From the sequence record MH494197.1: a stretch of 64,000 nt of DNA, one strand, 5' to 3'. The translations under genes were made by a program, and so were the position numbers. Below the pieces are notes generated by a model. It saw only the letters and a list, made by a program, of their open reading frames with translations. It searched no databases and had not been told where the DNA came from. Below are positions 2,787 to 26,471 of this stretch, piece by piece; within the stretch, counting starts at the first letter, position 1, and each line of letters starts with the position of its first letter. The stretch comes from Escherichia phage CMSTMSU.

Positions 2787-3411
2787 TTATTGGTAATATT
2801 TCGACAGTACTGAATAGATTTTCAAACGTAGTTCATCCCAGTTGTTAACATAGTCATACCCATAACCATTTTTATACATATGATTGTGGGACGCTCGCAT
2901 CATAACTGATGGGATACCCAATTCCATTGATGTTTCAATATTATTGATATAATCATCAATCATCAGTTTTACGTCATATCGTTCTTTTAATTCTACTAGT
3001 GCTTCATGCTTAGATTCATTCATTTCAACAATGATGATTTCATCAAAACATGTCTCACCAAATACATGCATAAGATTAGTATTGCGAAGTACCTCGCTAT
3101 AACCTTTCTTACCACACTTAGTCAGTACTATGAATTTTTCCTTGTAAAACGATCACGCAGTTCATGCATAATACTTACAGTGTTAGTTTCTACAGGTTTT
3201 AGTAATCCAAACATATACGAACGTTGATTGAATTCAGTAATGATCTCTTGAACTTTTTTCGTGAAACACCAAACCATTCGGATAAATCGTATGCGAGTGG
3301 GTATGGTGTTGTTGGGTTGATATCATATTGGAGTTTTGCGTATTCTCCTAATGAACCAATGTGATCTAGTAGTACTTCATCACAGTCGAATACAATACAA
3401 CGGTCTTTCAT
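2787..3411 (-). CDS. HAD-superfamily 5-prime-nucleotidase-like protein, frameshifted
   Basis: N-terminus MKDRCIVFDCDEVLLDH resembles the DxDxV HAD motif of deoxyribonucleotidases; fragments 3199..3411 and 2787..3071 joined via a third frame. Confidence 0.45.
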
Positions 3412-4362
3412 TACATGTTCCCCGAACAGATTAGGTCAATCTCACACAGTAATGCACTGAGATTCATTTCACGGTCAGACACAGTAGCTTGTTTAACAAC
3501 AGCGTCACGAATCTTAACCTTAATTTTCATTAGAGTAATTTCATCAGTACTGAACATTTCTGCATTACGATACAGATAAGAGAAGAATGCATCCATCTCA
3601 TCATCAGGAATGTTTTGCACGATCTGCTCACGCATTTGACGAATGTTACCAGCTTTTAGTGCATCAACAATGGCAGTACGATACCCAGCAGAGTTCTCAA
3701 TACTGTCTTCAAGTTTTACAAGTTTACCATCGACTACTGAACTTTGCAATACGTTTAGCGTTTTGCGGAAATCAGGATATGAAGCATTGATGTATTTTTG
3801 TACTTGTTCAATACTTTCATCAGTACTTAGATCTACTCCTTCTGCCAATAGTACGTTGTAGATGCGTGACATGAATTGTTCCATATCATGCTTCTCAATG
3901 GTGATGACCTGAACACGAGAGATAATAGGTTTCTGAATCTTATGTGGTTCATTACTGGTAAGAATGAAACGAGCATTTTCATGGTAATCTTCCATGACAC
4001 GTTTCAAGCTACCCTGTGCTTTGTGGTTCATTTGTTCCATTTCTTCCAGAACAAATACACGATAACGACCAAAACATGATAGTTTTGCTGCTGCGTCAAT
4101 TTTATCACGAACAGCATCGATACCTTCATCTGACATATTCAGTGTTGTTACATCACTAGGGTCAAGGTGTCCGTTAGCTTCCAGACCATTCAGTAGTACT
4201 TTGATTGCTGAAGTTTTACCTGTCCCTGCTGGTCCAAAAATCCAATATGTGGATATCACCAGTACGAATCCATTCTTCCATCTTCTGACGTAGGGCTTCG
4301 TTCTTAGATACATAATCTTCCATAGTTTGTGGGCGGTATTTTTCAGTCCATAATGTAGTCAT
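3411..4362 (-). CDS. gp44: clamp loader large subunit (T4 gp44-like AAA+ ATPase)
   Basis: Walker A GPAGTGKTSAIK, FVLEEMEQM Walker B-like, ARFILTSNEP sensor; true N-terminus MTTLWTEKYRPQTMEDYV at 4360-4362 is in another frame, shift inside a T-run near 4265. Confidence 0.8.
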
Positions 4363-4709
4363 GTTTTATTTCCTTGTATATTAGGTGTTTATGAAATCCA
4401 ATCTGCATAATCATACAACAATGCAGTGAATAAGTCTTCTGTCATTTCAAGTTGATTAAACAAAAATTAAATGAGTTTGCTTTGTTCTTCACACCCATTG
4501 CTTCGGCCGGCTGATACGATAAGTAAGTACTTAAACATATCATGAGAAACTTCATATACGTACTTCGTGTTAGTTCTATCTTCAAACATAAATCGTCCAT
4601 TTTAGAAACTAACGTAACGTCAGAAAAACTATATTTTCCATCATCAGTTATCATGTATTTTCATCCAAATAAAAGCCCAGATAATATATCCGAGCTTTAG
4701 ATTTATGTT

Positions 4710-5036
4710 TTAACGACCAAATGTTTGAGCAGAGATGCGTGGATCAGTGTCAGATACCAAACTTACTGCTGCTGGATAATCCACAAGATTCATTTTAATA
4801 CCATCAATCTCAATAGTTCTCGACCAACGACCGTGGTCAATTAGAATCCATTGTCCTTCTTTGATATCGGTAATGTCTTCACCAACAGAATATACTTTAG
4901 CCCAACGACAACGAATACCACGTATCTTACCATCATCACTTGTCAGTACAATTCCACCTGCGGTTTTACGCTCACCATGTTCTAGCTCAGTTACAATAAC
5001 TTTACCTTTACAAGCTGTCATTACTTTATTGGTCAT
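4710..5036 (-). CDS. Cpn10-like co-chaperonin (T4 gp31 / GroES-like)
   Basis: 108 aa; KGKVIVTELEHGERKTAGGIVL and KVYSVGEDI...GQWILIDHG match the GroES pattern. Confidence 0.5.
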   Translation of the reverse strand: MTNKVMTACKGKVIVTELEHGERKTAGGIVLTSDDGKIRGIRCRWAKVYSVGEDITDIKEGQWILIDHGRWSRTIEIDGIKMNLVDYPAAVSLVSDTDPRISAQTFGR

Positions 5037-5039
5037 GAA

Positions 5040-5384
5040 TTACTCCTGATCTTTAGTTTTTGCTCGGCGTGGAGCTTTCTTCTCTTCAGATACTTCAACT
5101 TCTGGTTCTTGTGGTTGAACTTCAAAGCTTTCATCATCCCATACTTCTTCAGTACTATATTCAGCACTGTGAAGTTGGTGTTCAGGAATGAAATCAGGAA
5201 TTTGCATTTCACGTTCTTTTTCTTGGATTAGTTCTTCACGGGTTTTAATGACCGTACCACCTGAACTAATCTTATCACCACGAGCATTTAGGTTTGCATT
5301 ACCTAGTGCTACTTGGTGCTGGTTTTGATACTTTAGCATATCCATATCAATGGTGGTTCCACGATAAGTTGTGTGTTTTGACAT
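5040..5384 (-). CDS. hypothetical protein (114 aa), acidic C-terminus
   Basis: intact ORF; no recognised domain. Confidence 0.4.
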   Translation of the reverse strand: MSKHTTYRGTTIDMDMLKYQNQHQVALGNANLNARGDKISSGGTVIKTREELIQEKEREMQIPDFIPEHQLHSAEYSTEEVWDDESFEVQPQEPEVEVSEEKKAPRRAKTKDQE

Positions 5385-5619
5385 ATAAAAATCCTTTTTC
5401 TATGTGAGTGATATAACGCCTCAAACAACATTATATCACATGTTTTTCTACCATTTCAAAAATTCATTTACATCTAGTTTATACTTCAAAGAATCAACCA
5501 TATGCAAATCAATCAGGAACAAACAATACGAAGCCACTGAACTACCACGCCCAAGACCCCAAAAATATTGTGCTCTTCCATATAATCAACTAACCAGATC
5601 ATACATCTTAAAAGCTTAG

Positions 5620-5962
5620 TCATGTTGTAATGTTCAAACAAATCAATCTCATACATTACACGTTCACGGGCTTCATCCGATGTACATTTCTGTAAAAGTA
5701 CTCACGCAAGTTGATGTTATCGTACACTGGATCATAACGCCATAGCTCATGGTTTTATCATGTTCTATTGTATAATCCAGCATACGCTGTTCTAAACCAA
5801 ATTTTTACAATTATCGTTAAATTTCAATCGTTCCGGTTCATCAATCTCCTGTAGCTGTAAGTACTGAATATCTGCACCACAGTTGATTGCATACACGACT
5901 GCATTAAGGTTACATTTTACATCACCATTGGGACTTATAAATCTGTTTCCTTGTACTTTCAT
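5620..5962 (-). CDS. hypothetical protein, frameshifted
   Basis: ATG at 5960-5962 (MKVQGNRFISPNGDVKCNLNAVVYAINCG..) followed by fragments in other frames; no ORF of 60 aa survives. Confidence 0.25.
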
Positions 5963-6004
5963 TTTTCTTCTTCTGATCCTCTTCGTTATCCGTTAAGTAA
6001 GAGT

Positions 6005-6202
6005 TCATGTCAAATATACATGGGTCTTGTTCATCATAGGAGGTTTTTCTTTTTGTCCCTGACGAATCTCTAATTCAGCATAGCACTGATTCAGAACGGT
6101 TTGCATGTTACCAACAATCATATCACTCATACCTGCTGCACGAGCAGACGTAATACGCATCGATTGTTCGTTAATTTTCAATTGTAACTCTTTCTCGGTC
6201 AT
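6005..6202 (-). CDS. hypothetical protein (65 aa)
   Basis: ORF only. Confidence 0.3.
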   Translation of the reverse strand: MTEKELQLKINEQSMRITSARAAGMSDMIVGNMQTVLNQCYAELEIRQGQKEKPPMMNKTHVYLT

Positions 6203-6232
6203 GGTTGATGGATCAAAAATGGATTGAACATA

Positions 6233-6786
6233 TCATCCTCCTAAATTGCTGTTTTGTAATGAAATCAAAAATGTATCATGAACGTAGTTTTCGAATTCAT
6301 GTGCAAAGAATCCAAACTCAACTCCTGTGATTTCAAACTCAACACCAACCATCTTACCATGTTCATTGTTCTGAAGTAAAGTGTTAAAGAATGCTTCGCC
6401 CTTTCCGTGCACAATATGCAACTGGAATGATTGGCATAAATTTCTTTTCAACTCCATTTTCTTCGTATGGGTGATTCATGAAGCGAGGAACAGTGTCAAG
6501 CATCTCATCAGAAATTCCGTATAGCATCTACATACAAACCACGGTTCTGTAAATCAGTTGGGTCTTTCACAAGGTTAGTTGTGTCTTCGCCAATTGCTGC
6601 AAAAATATTTTGACGCAAGCCAAATATTTCACCGAGTGTTCCGTTATCAATTTGCGTGTAACTTCTTGGATTCTTAGAAACTGACACCAATGAACCTGCT
6701 GGTAAAACTTCACGGTATAATATATCATACTGCAAGTTACCTTGGTTGTCAAGTGCTGACATTACTTTATAGTTTCCCATTACCAT
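6233..6786 (-). CDS. one or two hypothetical proteins
   Basis: ORF 6508..6786 followed by MLYGISDEML.. and ORF 6233..6457 in a shifted frame. Confidence 0.3.
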
Positions 6787-24110: not shown

Positions 24111-24130
24111 ATATATTCCTTTATATTTGG

Positions 24131-24146
24131 AAAGATTAATCCGCCG
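24131..24146 (-). promoter_or_regulatory. intercistronic hairpin between nrdA and nrdB
   Basis: ATCCGC-CGAA-GCGGAT stem-loop between the nrdA stop (24161) and the nrdB RBS. Confidence 0.35.
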
Positions 24147-24160
24147 AAGCGGATCTTTAA

Positions 24161-26471
24161 TTAGATCTTACAACTATCACAATCACCTTCATCTAAGTCA
24201 GGTAGTGTAGGTAACACAAACTGTCCAGATTCTGGTTTTGCAGCTTCTTTTAGTACTTTCTCAACATCCACTTCATCAGAACCATCATTAGTATTATGAT
24301 AGTACAGATTTTTCAAACCAACTTTGTATGCATACATTAGTTCAGTTAGTAGTGTTGACATTGGCAACTTACCATCAGGAAGTGTGCTGGATTGTAACTG
24401 GTATTCACACTAATACTTTGGTCAATGTATTTCTGAAGAACACCACAGATTTGTAGATAACCGATGTTATCTTTCTGATCCCATAGTAAATCATATTTGT
24501 TTTTCAACTTATTGATTTCAGGAACGACTTGTTTAAGAATACCATCTTTAGATAGTTTCTTAGTTACAAGTGAACGAGGTTTCTCAATACCATTAGTACT
24601 GTTACTGATTTGTGCACTAGTTTCTGCTGGCATCAGTGCCATAGTTGTTGCGTTACGAATACCATATTGTTTGATATCCTGACGCAATGTTTCCCAATCT
24701 TGTTTTAGTTCAGGAGATACCAACGCATCAATATCTTCTTTATAGGTATCAATTGGTAGAATACCTTTAGCATATTTTAGTGTGTCAAAACCTTCACACT
24801 TACCTTTCTCTTTAGCAAGCTGTACAGAAGATTTAATTAGATAATAAGACCATGCTTCAGCCCACTCGTTAACTGTTTCCAATGCAGCTTCATTGTAACG
24901 CAAACCACGTTTAGCAAGGAAGTATGCAAAGTTAATGATACCAACACCTAATGGGCGATACATTTTAGTTGCACGGTCAGCATGAACTACTGGGTAGTCT
25001 TGATAATCCAATAGAGAATCAAGAGCACGTACAGAAAGATCACATGCAGTTTCCATATCTTCTGGACGATCAAAGTTGCCCCAGTTGATTGCACTCAAAG
25101 TACATAGACTAATCAAACCTTCACCAGTATTAATATCATCAAATGGCACAGATGGTAGTGCGATTTCTTGACACAAGTTGGATTGTTCAATTGGTGCAAT
25201 TGATTCAATAAAGGTTGAGTGTGTGTTTGCATGGTCAATGTTTTGAATATAGATACGACCAGTTTCTGCACGCTCAGTCATTAGAGTACTGAATACTTCA
25301 ACAGCAGATACAGATTTTTACGAATGCTTGGGTCAGCTTCATACTTCTTGTATAGCTTTTCAAATTCTTTTGGTTAGAACAGAATGCTTCATATAGTCCG
25401 GAACTTCATTAGGACTAAAGAATGTAATATTCTTGCCATCAACTAAACGTTGATATAGTGTTTTGTTCACTTGGAAACAATAGTCAAGTTGTCGAACACG
25501 GTTGAACTCAGTGCCTTTGTTATTTTTCAGTACTACAAGATTGTCAAATTCCAAATGCCACAATGGGAAGTGGACGGTTGCTGCACCACCACGTACACCA
25601 CCTTGAGAGCAGCTTTTAACGGTCTTAGCAGTTGATGCAATGAAAGGAATCAAACCAGTGTGTACTGCATCACCTGAACGAATCTCGAGTCCAGAGCACG
25701 AATGCGGCCCATATTGATACCAAGTCCAGCTTTACGGGAAATATAACGTAGGATAGCGTGGTTAGAAGAACCAATACTATCTAGACTATCTCCAACGTTT
25801 AGTACTACACAAGAACTAAACTGACGTGTATTGGTACGTAGACCAGCCATGATAGGAGTCGGGAGACTGATATCAAAGTTACTAACAGCATCATAAAACT
25901 TCTTAACATAAGACATACGTACAGAGCGATCATACTCCATAAAGATGATTGCTGCAATGGTCATATATGCCATTTGTGGAGTTTCGTAGATTTTCTTAGT
26001 TACGCGATTCTTATATAGATACTTTCCTTCCCACTGACGCATAGCAACATAAGTGAATTTATCATCACGTTTATGTTTGATGTAACGTCCAAGCTCTTCA
26101 ATTTCTTGAAGTGTGTATTTCTCAAGAATTTCTGGATCATAGATTTTTGTATCTACCATTTCTTGTAGATGTGCAGTGTATTTGATAGGGTCATAGTCGC
26201 CATACACTTGCTTACGGATACTATAATTTAGTAAGCGACCAGCAACGTATTGGTAGTTTGGTGTATCTTCAGAAATAAGTTCTGCTGCTGATTTAATCAG
26301 AATATCATGAATAGTATTGGTTTCAATACCTTCAAAGAATTGAAGTTGTGCACGAATTTCAATTTCGGAAACAGATACACCACTCAGCCCTTCGGCAGCA
26401 AAAATAAAATTTGATGGATCTTATCCAAAGATAACGGTTCTTTTTTCCATTACGCTTGGTTACGTTAATCA
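24161..26471 (-). CDS. nrdA: ribonucleotide reductase large subunit NrdA, frameshifted
   Basis: N-terminal MINVTKRNGKKEPLSLDKI, GRIYIQNIDHANTHSTF, SNLCQEIALP, C-terminal DEGDCDSCKI; fragments 25650..26207, 25360..25653, 24346..25281, 24161..24367. Confidence 0.9.

Follow-up and report, generated by a model that had tools for sequence, protein, structure and literature searches.

A conserved 89-residue protein gene, probably interrupted by nanopore-type sequence errors, in the apparent gap between the Cpn10-like and clamp-loader genes of Escherichia phage CMSTMSU

The window analysed here, 64,000 nucleotides of Escherichia phage CMSTMSU (record MH494197.1), is tightly packed with genes, and the question raised by positions 4363-4709 is why this stretch of 347 nt appears to be empty. 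The genes around it all lie on the minus strand. A reading of the letters alone (hereafter the sequence-only reading) had placed a Cpn10/GroES-like (gp31-like) gene on one side of the stretch, at 4710-5036 (-), and a clamp-loader gene starting at 4362 (-) on the other, and both placements are confirmed. Between them it found no convincing open reading frame (ORF) and proposed that the region may hold promoters, a small RNA or a very small gene. In the sequence as written, the ORF list contains one sizeable frame in the interval, of 70 codons at 4442-4654 (-), and the others are smaller. The claim that a convincing ORF is lacking is thus literally true of the letters given, but the absence belongs to an error-laden sequence and not to the phage. 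With a probability of about 95%, the interval is a small protein-coding gene on the minus strand that has been broken by three error deletions of the Oxford Nanopore type, and not a non-coding gap.

The relatives of the phage provide the standard against which the interval can be read. A megablast search with positions 3400-5400 retrieves 15 phage genomes, all from E. coli jumbo phages, of which nine are 98.5-99.1% identical to the window and six, including 121Q and A4, are 81-83% identical. Those of the opened records that carry a genus are all assigned to Asteriusvirus. Judged by sequence, the window is that of an Asteriusvirus, an E. coli jumbo phage of the 121Q/PBECO4 type, and its identity to phage Ecwhy_1 is about 99%. 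The query of 2001 nt aligns to 2002-2010 nt in each of the 15 relatives. In the eight close relatives listed, the interval measures 352 nt, compared to 347 nt in the window, and an ORF of 270 nt is intact in all eight. The same interval holds a 270-nt gene in 15 of the 15 relatives found by the DNA search. In the annotated genomes of Ecwhy_1, 121Q, A4, fEgEco12 and EC.P1, it carries a 270-nt coding sequence for an 89-residue 'hypothetical protein' (gp59 in 121Q), and the Ecwhy_1, fEgEco12 and EC.P1 proteins are identical to one another.

Alignment to Ecwhy_1, 121Q and A4, together with tblastn and a three-frame translation, locates the ortholog of this gene (121Q gp59, Ecwhy1_100; PHROG 16539) at 4389-4654 (-) in the window. 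It shares its position between the Cpn10-like gene and the clamp loader with the 121Q gene (YP_009101653.1), the Ecwhy_1 gene (QAY00381.1) and PHROG 16539, and differs from them in that its ORF is interrupted, a difference that is attributed to sequence error. The gene is 266 nt long in the window, compared to 270 nt in the relatives, and three deletions divide it between two reading frames, leaving it without an uninterrupted frame of about 270 nt. The first deletion, at 4600-4603, where the plus strand has T4 in place of the T5 of the relatives, shifts the frame after codon 18. The second, at 4507-4510, has CCGG where the relatives have the Dcm site CCTGG plus an extra G; the loss of these 2 nt restores the first frame. 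The third, at 4462-4466, has A5 on the plus strand in place of A6 and changes the frame ahead of the final 24 codons. Within the whole interval, the window differs from Ecwhy_1 by only four deletions: these three and one in the U-tract of a terminator-like hairpin described below.

The four frame pieces of the 89-residue protein are all present in the window and in the correct order. Residues 1-18 and approximately 51-65 lie in the frame of the 70-codon ORF, and residues 19-49 and 66-89 lie in the other frame. When the three deletions are repaired, the protein is 100% identical to that of Ecwhy_1 and 84% identical to that of 121Q, and it matches the profile phrog_16539 over its full length (E-value of 4.5e-45 over positions 1-88 of 89). 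The 70-codon ORF at 4442-4654 (-) is therefore a chimeric artefact with a true start. It consists of the true residues 1-18, followed by 31 out-of-frame residues, 15 true residues and an out-of-frame tail; apart from residues 1-18 and the AEAMGVKNKANSFNF stretch, which keep the true frame, it is out-of-frame read-through. The sequence-only reading had set this ORF aside for its poor start context, which is half right. The real gene does begin at the ATG at 4654-4652, a conserved start, and the element upstream of it is weak: GGATGA, about 8 nt from the ATG, is not conserved in 121Q or A4. The very small gene that was offered as one of three alternatives does exist, in the form of the 89-residue gene at 4389-4654 (-), and it has its start codon in common with the dismissed ORF.

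The pattern of substitutions indicates that the small gene is real. Among the orthologs from Ecwhy_1, 121Q, A4 and RaK2, pN is 0.11-0.25 and pS is 0.64-0.83, with synonymous changes near saturation, and it is the third codon position that takes most of the differences (for instance, 11/9/43 for the first, second and third positions). By this measure of its sequences, the gene is protein-coding and under purifying selection. Conservation with coding-type substitutions, which the sequence-only reading had said would overturn the idea of a non-coding stretch if found for the 70-codon ORF, thus belongs to the repaired ORF, the 70-codon frame itself being a chimera. In a tblastn search, the protein turns up in 76 phage records with identities down to 38%. 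These include Asteriusvirus, the RaK2-like Klebsiella phages, the Salmonella phages 7t3 and SE_PL, Eneladusvirus, CBB, GAP32, Erwinia phages and the Xanthomonas phage XaC1. Over the family as a whole, conservation reaches down to 36-40% identity. A profile search of 5.8 billion proteins yields 63 homologs of 87-122 residues and two short fragments, in none of which a Pfam domain is found, and when 1.84 billion cluster representatives are searched exhaustively with an HMM, only 27 clusters at 50% identity are found. As far as these searches reach, the family is compact and limited to RaK2/121Q-like jumbo phages. A weak tblastn match to the Lak megaphages (Prevotella phage Lak-A1, stretch 3001-3162; 35% identity over residues 14-66, E-value of 3e-3) was dropped as a homolog, as the ORF list made with the standard code (table 11) gives no usable gene context and the match may be due to chance.

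The nature of the three deletions becomes clear when the comparison is extended to the first 48.6 kb of the window (positions 1-48595), aligned to Ecwhy_1. The alignment shows 221 indels, and in every case it is the window that has lost bases. They can be sorted into 127 in homopolymers of at least 4 bases, 34 at CCWGG sites, 6 next to GATC and 54 others, which are mostly contractions of 3-base runs of C or G. The share of reference homopolymers that are shortened is 1.8%, 4.4%, 35%, 87% and 94% for runs of 3, 4, 5, 6 and 7 bases, respectively. The 64-kb window contains no CCWGG (Dcm) site, although its base composition would lead one to expect about 44; Ecwhy_1 has 32 of them in its aligned 49.6 kb, and each of the 32 is damaged in the window. 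The number of CCGG sites is raised in turn (28 in the 64-kb window, compared to 6 in the 50-kb stretch of Ecwhy_1). GATC (Dam) sites are not depleted, with 85 in the window and 84 in Ecwhy_1. When the coding sequences of Ecwhy_1 are compared, 52 of 63 genes prove to be frameshifted in the window by one deletion or more. Among them are both topoisomerase II subunits, three helicases, the primase, both subunits of ribonucleotide reductase (RNR), the terminase and many structural proteins.

When Oxford Nanopore basecallers are applied to native enterobacterial DNA, the errors that dominate the consensus are wrong homopolymer lengths and errors at Dcm motifs (Wick et al. 2019, PMC6591954). The window resembles these errors in having deletions only, in losing bases according to homopolymer length and in being affected at all CCAGG and CCTGG sites. 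It differs from them in that the Dam (GATC) sites are unaffected, so that only the Dcm and homopolymer parts of the signature are present. The deletions are one-directional, depend on homopolymer length, occur at every CCWGG site and extend across essential genes, and from this pattern, which is unambiguous, we infer that they are base-calling or assembly errors of the nanopore type and not mutations. That no CCWGG site survives would mean that the DNA of the phage was Dcm-methylated at the time of sequencing, and the pattern as a whole implies a nanopore-type assembly of this methylated DNA that was left unpolished.

It might be argued instead that the deletions are real and that this strain carries a genuine pseudogene of the 89-residue gene, with the interval consisting of decaying non-coding DNA. 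About 0.7% substitutions also separate the window from its closest relatives and mark it as a distinct isolate that could carry private mutations. However, the same kind of deletion frameshifts the 52 genes mentioned above, among them essential replication and packaging genes, and such a phage would not be viable. Besides, with every indel a deletion, located at long homopolymers and at each CCWGG site, a mutational origin would demand frameshifting deletions that erase one methylation motif, which is not what mutation does. A pseudogene is accordingly very improbable, and the apparent break is best read as an artefact that an assembly of low accuracy has produced in a hypothetical gene annotated before. 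With approximately one deletion per 220 bases, ORF-level oddities in the window, such as gaps, frameshifts, pseudogenes and split genes, are unreadable. The remark of the sequence-only reading that the stretch is among the longest non-coding-looking gaps carries little meaning with 52 of 63 genes frameshifted. Findings that rest on broken or missing ORFs in it are suspect, and Ecwhy_1 or fEgEco12 should be checked first.

The comparison with Ecwhy_1 also revealed a segment of about 788 bp (24618-25391 of the comparison stretch), located between the genes for the small and large RNR subunits, that is absent from the window at about 24124-24135. It carries a gene for a 257-residue hypothetical protein, Ecwhy1_127, without a Pfam match. 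The difference is a presence/absence polymorphism, and the gene is possibly a mobile one.

The part of the interval that lies outside the small gene is short. The stop codon of the Cpn10-like gene, which is intact in the window without indels relative to Ecwhy_1 (4710-5036, -; Pfam PF00166, 22.6 bits against a cut-off of 21.1), is separated from the ATG of the small gene by a spacer of 55 nt. Most of this spacer is occupied by a hairpin and U-tract resembling an intrinsic terminator at 4664-4698 (-), just downstream of the Cpn10-like gene. The hairpin has a 12-bp stem at 4672-4698 (-) and is followed by UUUUAUUU. Its U-tract is interrupted in the window and is one base short, with A4 at 4671-4674 where the relatives have A5. 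The RNA is predicted to fold with -13.3 to -14.6 kcal/mol (z of -4.7), and none of 200 shuffled sequences is as stable.

A hairpin followed by a U-run is found at the matching position in five phages (the window, 121Q, A4, RaK2 and GAP32), and the stem sequences are entirely different in RaK2 and GAP32 (comparison loci 2459-2488 and 2457-2483). As the position is kept even though these stems differ, it is the terminator function that appears to be conserved. The record of phage G17 has a 'terminator' feature annotated under the match. Like the intrinsic terminators of T4-like and RaK2-like phages, of which 74 have been predicted genome-wide in phage CBB (PMC5259590), the structure is a GC-containing hairpin that is followed by a U-tract and lies immediately after a stop codon. 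It differs from them in having two G-U pairs in the stem and an interrupted U-tract, and in not being called by a consensus scanner: a simple terminator scanner missed it, its loop and T-run being outside the criteria of the scanner. The structure itself is well defined, and it probably acts as a rho-independent-type terminator of the Cpn10-like gene. The room after this terminator is too small for a promoter. The small gene and the clamp loader are thus probably expressed by read-through or from promoters located further upstream.

The stable, conserved hairpin at 4672-4698 and the AT-rich sequence are the features that would suit a truly non-coding interval with a small RNA or a cluster of promoters, as would a match to the Aggregatibacter sRNA of Rfam with an E-value of 0.011. 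This match scores 21.7 bits against a gathering score of 97, and the covariance-model search of positions 4200-4900 returned sub-threshold noise only, the best score being 21.9 bits against a gathering score of 70. The check for tRNA and small RNA that the sequence-only reading had proposed therefore gives nothing at the gathering score, and ARAGORN finds no tRNA genes. The scan for sigma-70 promoters gives two promoter-like sites, compared to 3.1 expected from shuffled sequence, so that such sites are not in excess. The promoter motifs described for phage CBB are ATAAATA (late) and TGAAACG...TATA (middle) (PMC5259590). A candidate for a CBB-like promoter, CATAAATC at about 4700-4707 (-), was rejected because it is not conserved in 121Q or A4; TGAAACG is absent on inspection by eye, and no promoter is claimed. 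The hairpin, moreover, is accounted for as the upstream gene's terminator, and neither codon-periodic substitutions with pN far below pS nor a protein family conserved to 36-40% identity agrees with non-coding DNA. The notion of a non-coding stretch with promoters or a small RNA is therefore not supported, its probability being even lower than that of a pseudogene.

On its other side, the small gene ends with the stop codon TAA at 4391-4389 (-), and the ATG of the clamp loader is at 4362-4360 (-). In the 26-nt spacer between them (4363-4388, -), which was read directly from the sequence, AAGGA at 4375-4371 (-) would be the Shine-Dalgarno element, that is, the ribosome-binding site, of the clamp loader. 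In the alignment, this element is conserved as AAGGAA in 121Q and appears as GAGGAA in A4.

The RFC/gp44-like clamp-loader gene itself (3411-4362, -) is damaged in the same way as the small gene. Two 1-nt deletions, at about 4241 and 4251, shorten A6 to A5 and GGG to GG just before the P-loop and split the gene into ORFs of 48 and 300 residues. In the relatives, the gene is intact, with 954 nt encoding 317 residues, and the intact ortholog has Pfam matches to DNA_pol3_delta2 and AAA. Such a split by itself suggests frame errors rather than biology. The split is an error of the same type as those in the small gene and not a case of programmed frameshifting. Expression of both the small protein and the clamp loader by programmed ribosomal frameshifts, for which the slippery-looking T and A runs at the shifts might speak, is effectively refuted. 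Relatives that are 99% identical read the same protein from one frame, and no recoding mechanism that is known would account for three successive shifts within 266 nt, of which the one at a CCWGG site changes 2 nt. The same pattern also runs across the whole window.

With the gene accepted as protein-coding and broken by sequence errors only, the protein itself can be considered. The 89-residue protein is predicted with confidence (pLDDT of 95) to have a fold that has no match in the PDB; according to this model, it would be a small acidic protein with a beta-strand part and three helices. Q69, N61, E74 and W87 contribute to a conserved surface. The only structural neighbour outside the family is a 109-residue phage protein (BFVD A0A2I7S9S3; Foldseek E-value of 0.04, TM-score of 0.72 on the query, 16% identity). 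A Pfam search of the protein gives no hits, NCBIfam gives only a noise match to RimP (12.9 bits against a cut-off of 205), and a profile search of PDB sequences returns nothing meaningful. Comparisons by hhalign with T4 gp62, RpbA and gp45.2 are negative in all three cases. In these searches, no link to any known replication protein was found by sequence or by fold. No profile search supports the label 'TelA-like protein' that the CRJP21 ortholog carries, or two stray JGI names found on homologs, and these annotations were disregarded. The protein contains SFNFLF, which we take to resemble the clamp-binding SLDFLF motif of T4. As a clamp-binding motif, SFNFLF was rejected: it is internal, the model places it among the helices, and XaC1 does not share it.

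The position of the gene provides the main hint at its role. It lies 2-26 nt upstream of an RFC-like clamp loader in every complete genome examined, and direct adjacency is seen in Asteriusvirus, RaK2, GAP32, XaC1, Serratia phage BF, 7t3 and two distant metagenomic members. In XaC1, the adjacency is kept though the upstream neighbours differ. In P0081, the most distant of the members tested, about 2.8 kb separate the gene from the clamp loader. The adjacency belongs to a longer block of genes whose order is conserved across the whole clade, and because it is part of such a syntenic block, it is weak evidence of a physical partnership.

RaK2-like phages are reported to have a gp44 homolog and no detectable gp62, gp45 or gp59 (CBB paper, PMC5259590), so that a missing partner of the clamp loader is to be expected, and an RFC-family ATPase with a helical small subunit is described as the typical pair in related jumbo phages (Iyer et al., PMC7824862). 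Given this pairing, a gp44 homolog lacking gp62 and the adjacency to the clamp loader, a clamp-loader-associated role is the most economical guess. The protein might tentatively be regarded as a non-virion accessory of the replication module that is co-transcribed with, and works with, the RFC-like clamp loader, although we would sooner bet against this assignment than for it. More doubtful still is the proposal that it is the missing clamp-loader partner in RaK2/121Q-like jumbo phages, either as a stand-in for gp62 or as an adaptor to an unrecognised sliding clamp. It resembles T4 gp62, the small subunit of gp44/62, in being a small non-ATPase protein encoded next to a gp44-like AAA+ clamp-loader gene. 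Membership in the gp62 family was rejected on sequence, since hhalign of a 60-sequence profile against T4 gp62 gives a probability of 0.1% and an E-value of 0.51, and it failed on fold, size and gene order as well. A well-predicted, unmatched fold beside a clamp loader offers a modest starting point for work on the replisome of RaK2-like jumbo phages, which is understood only in part.

A minor observation concerns the DNA two genes upstream, at about 5450-5970 (-). This region corresponds to a gene for a 172-residue 'DNA polymerase III alpha' fragment (5839-6357 in the Ecwhy_1 comparison stretch), and four frameshifting deletions interrupt it in the window. For jumbo phages of group 2.2, a Pol III alpha that is minimal and split has been described (Iyer et al. 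2021, PMC7824862).
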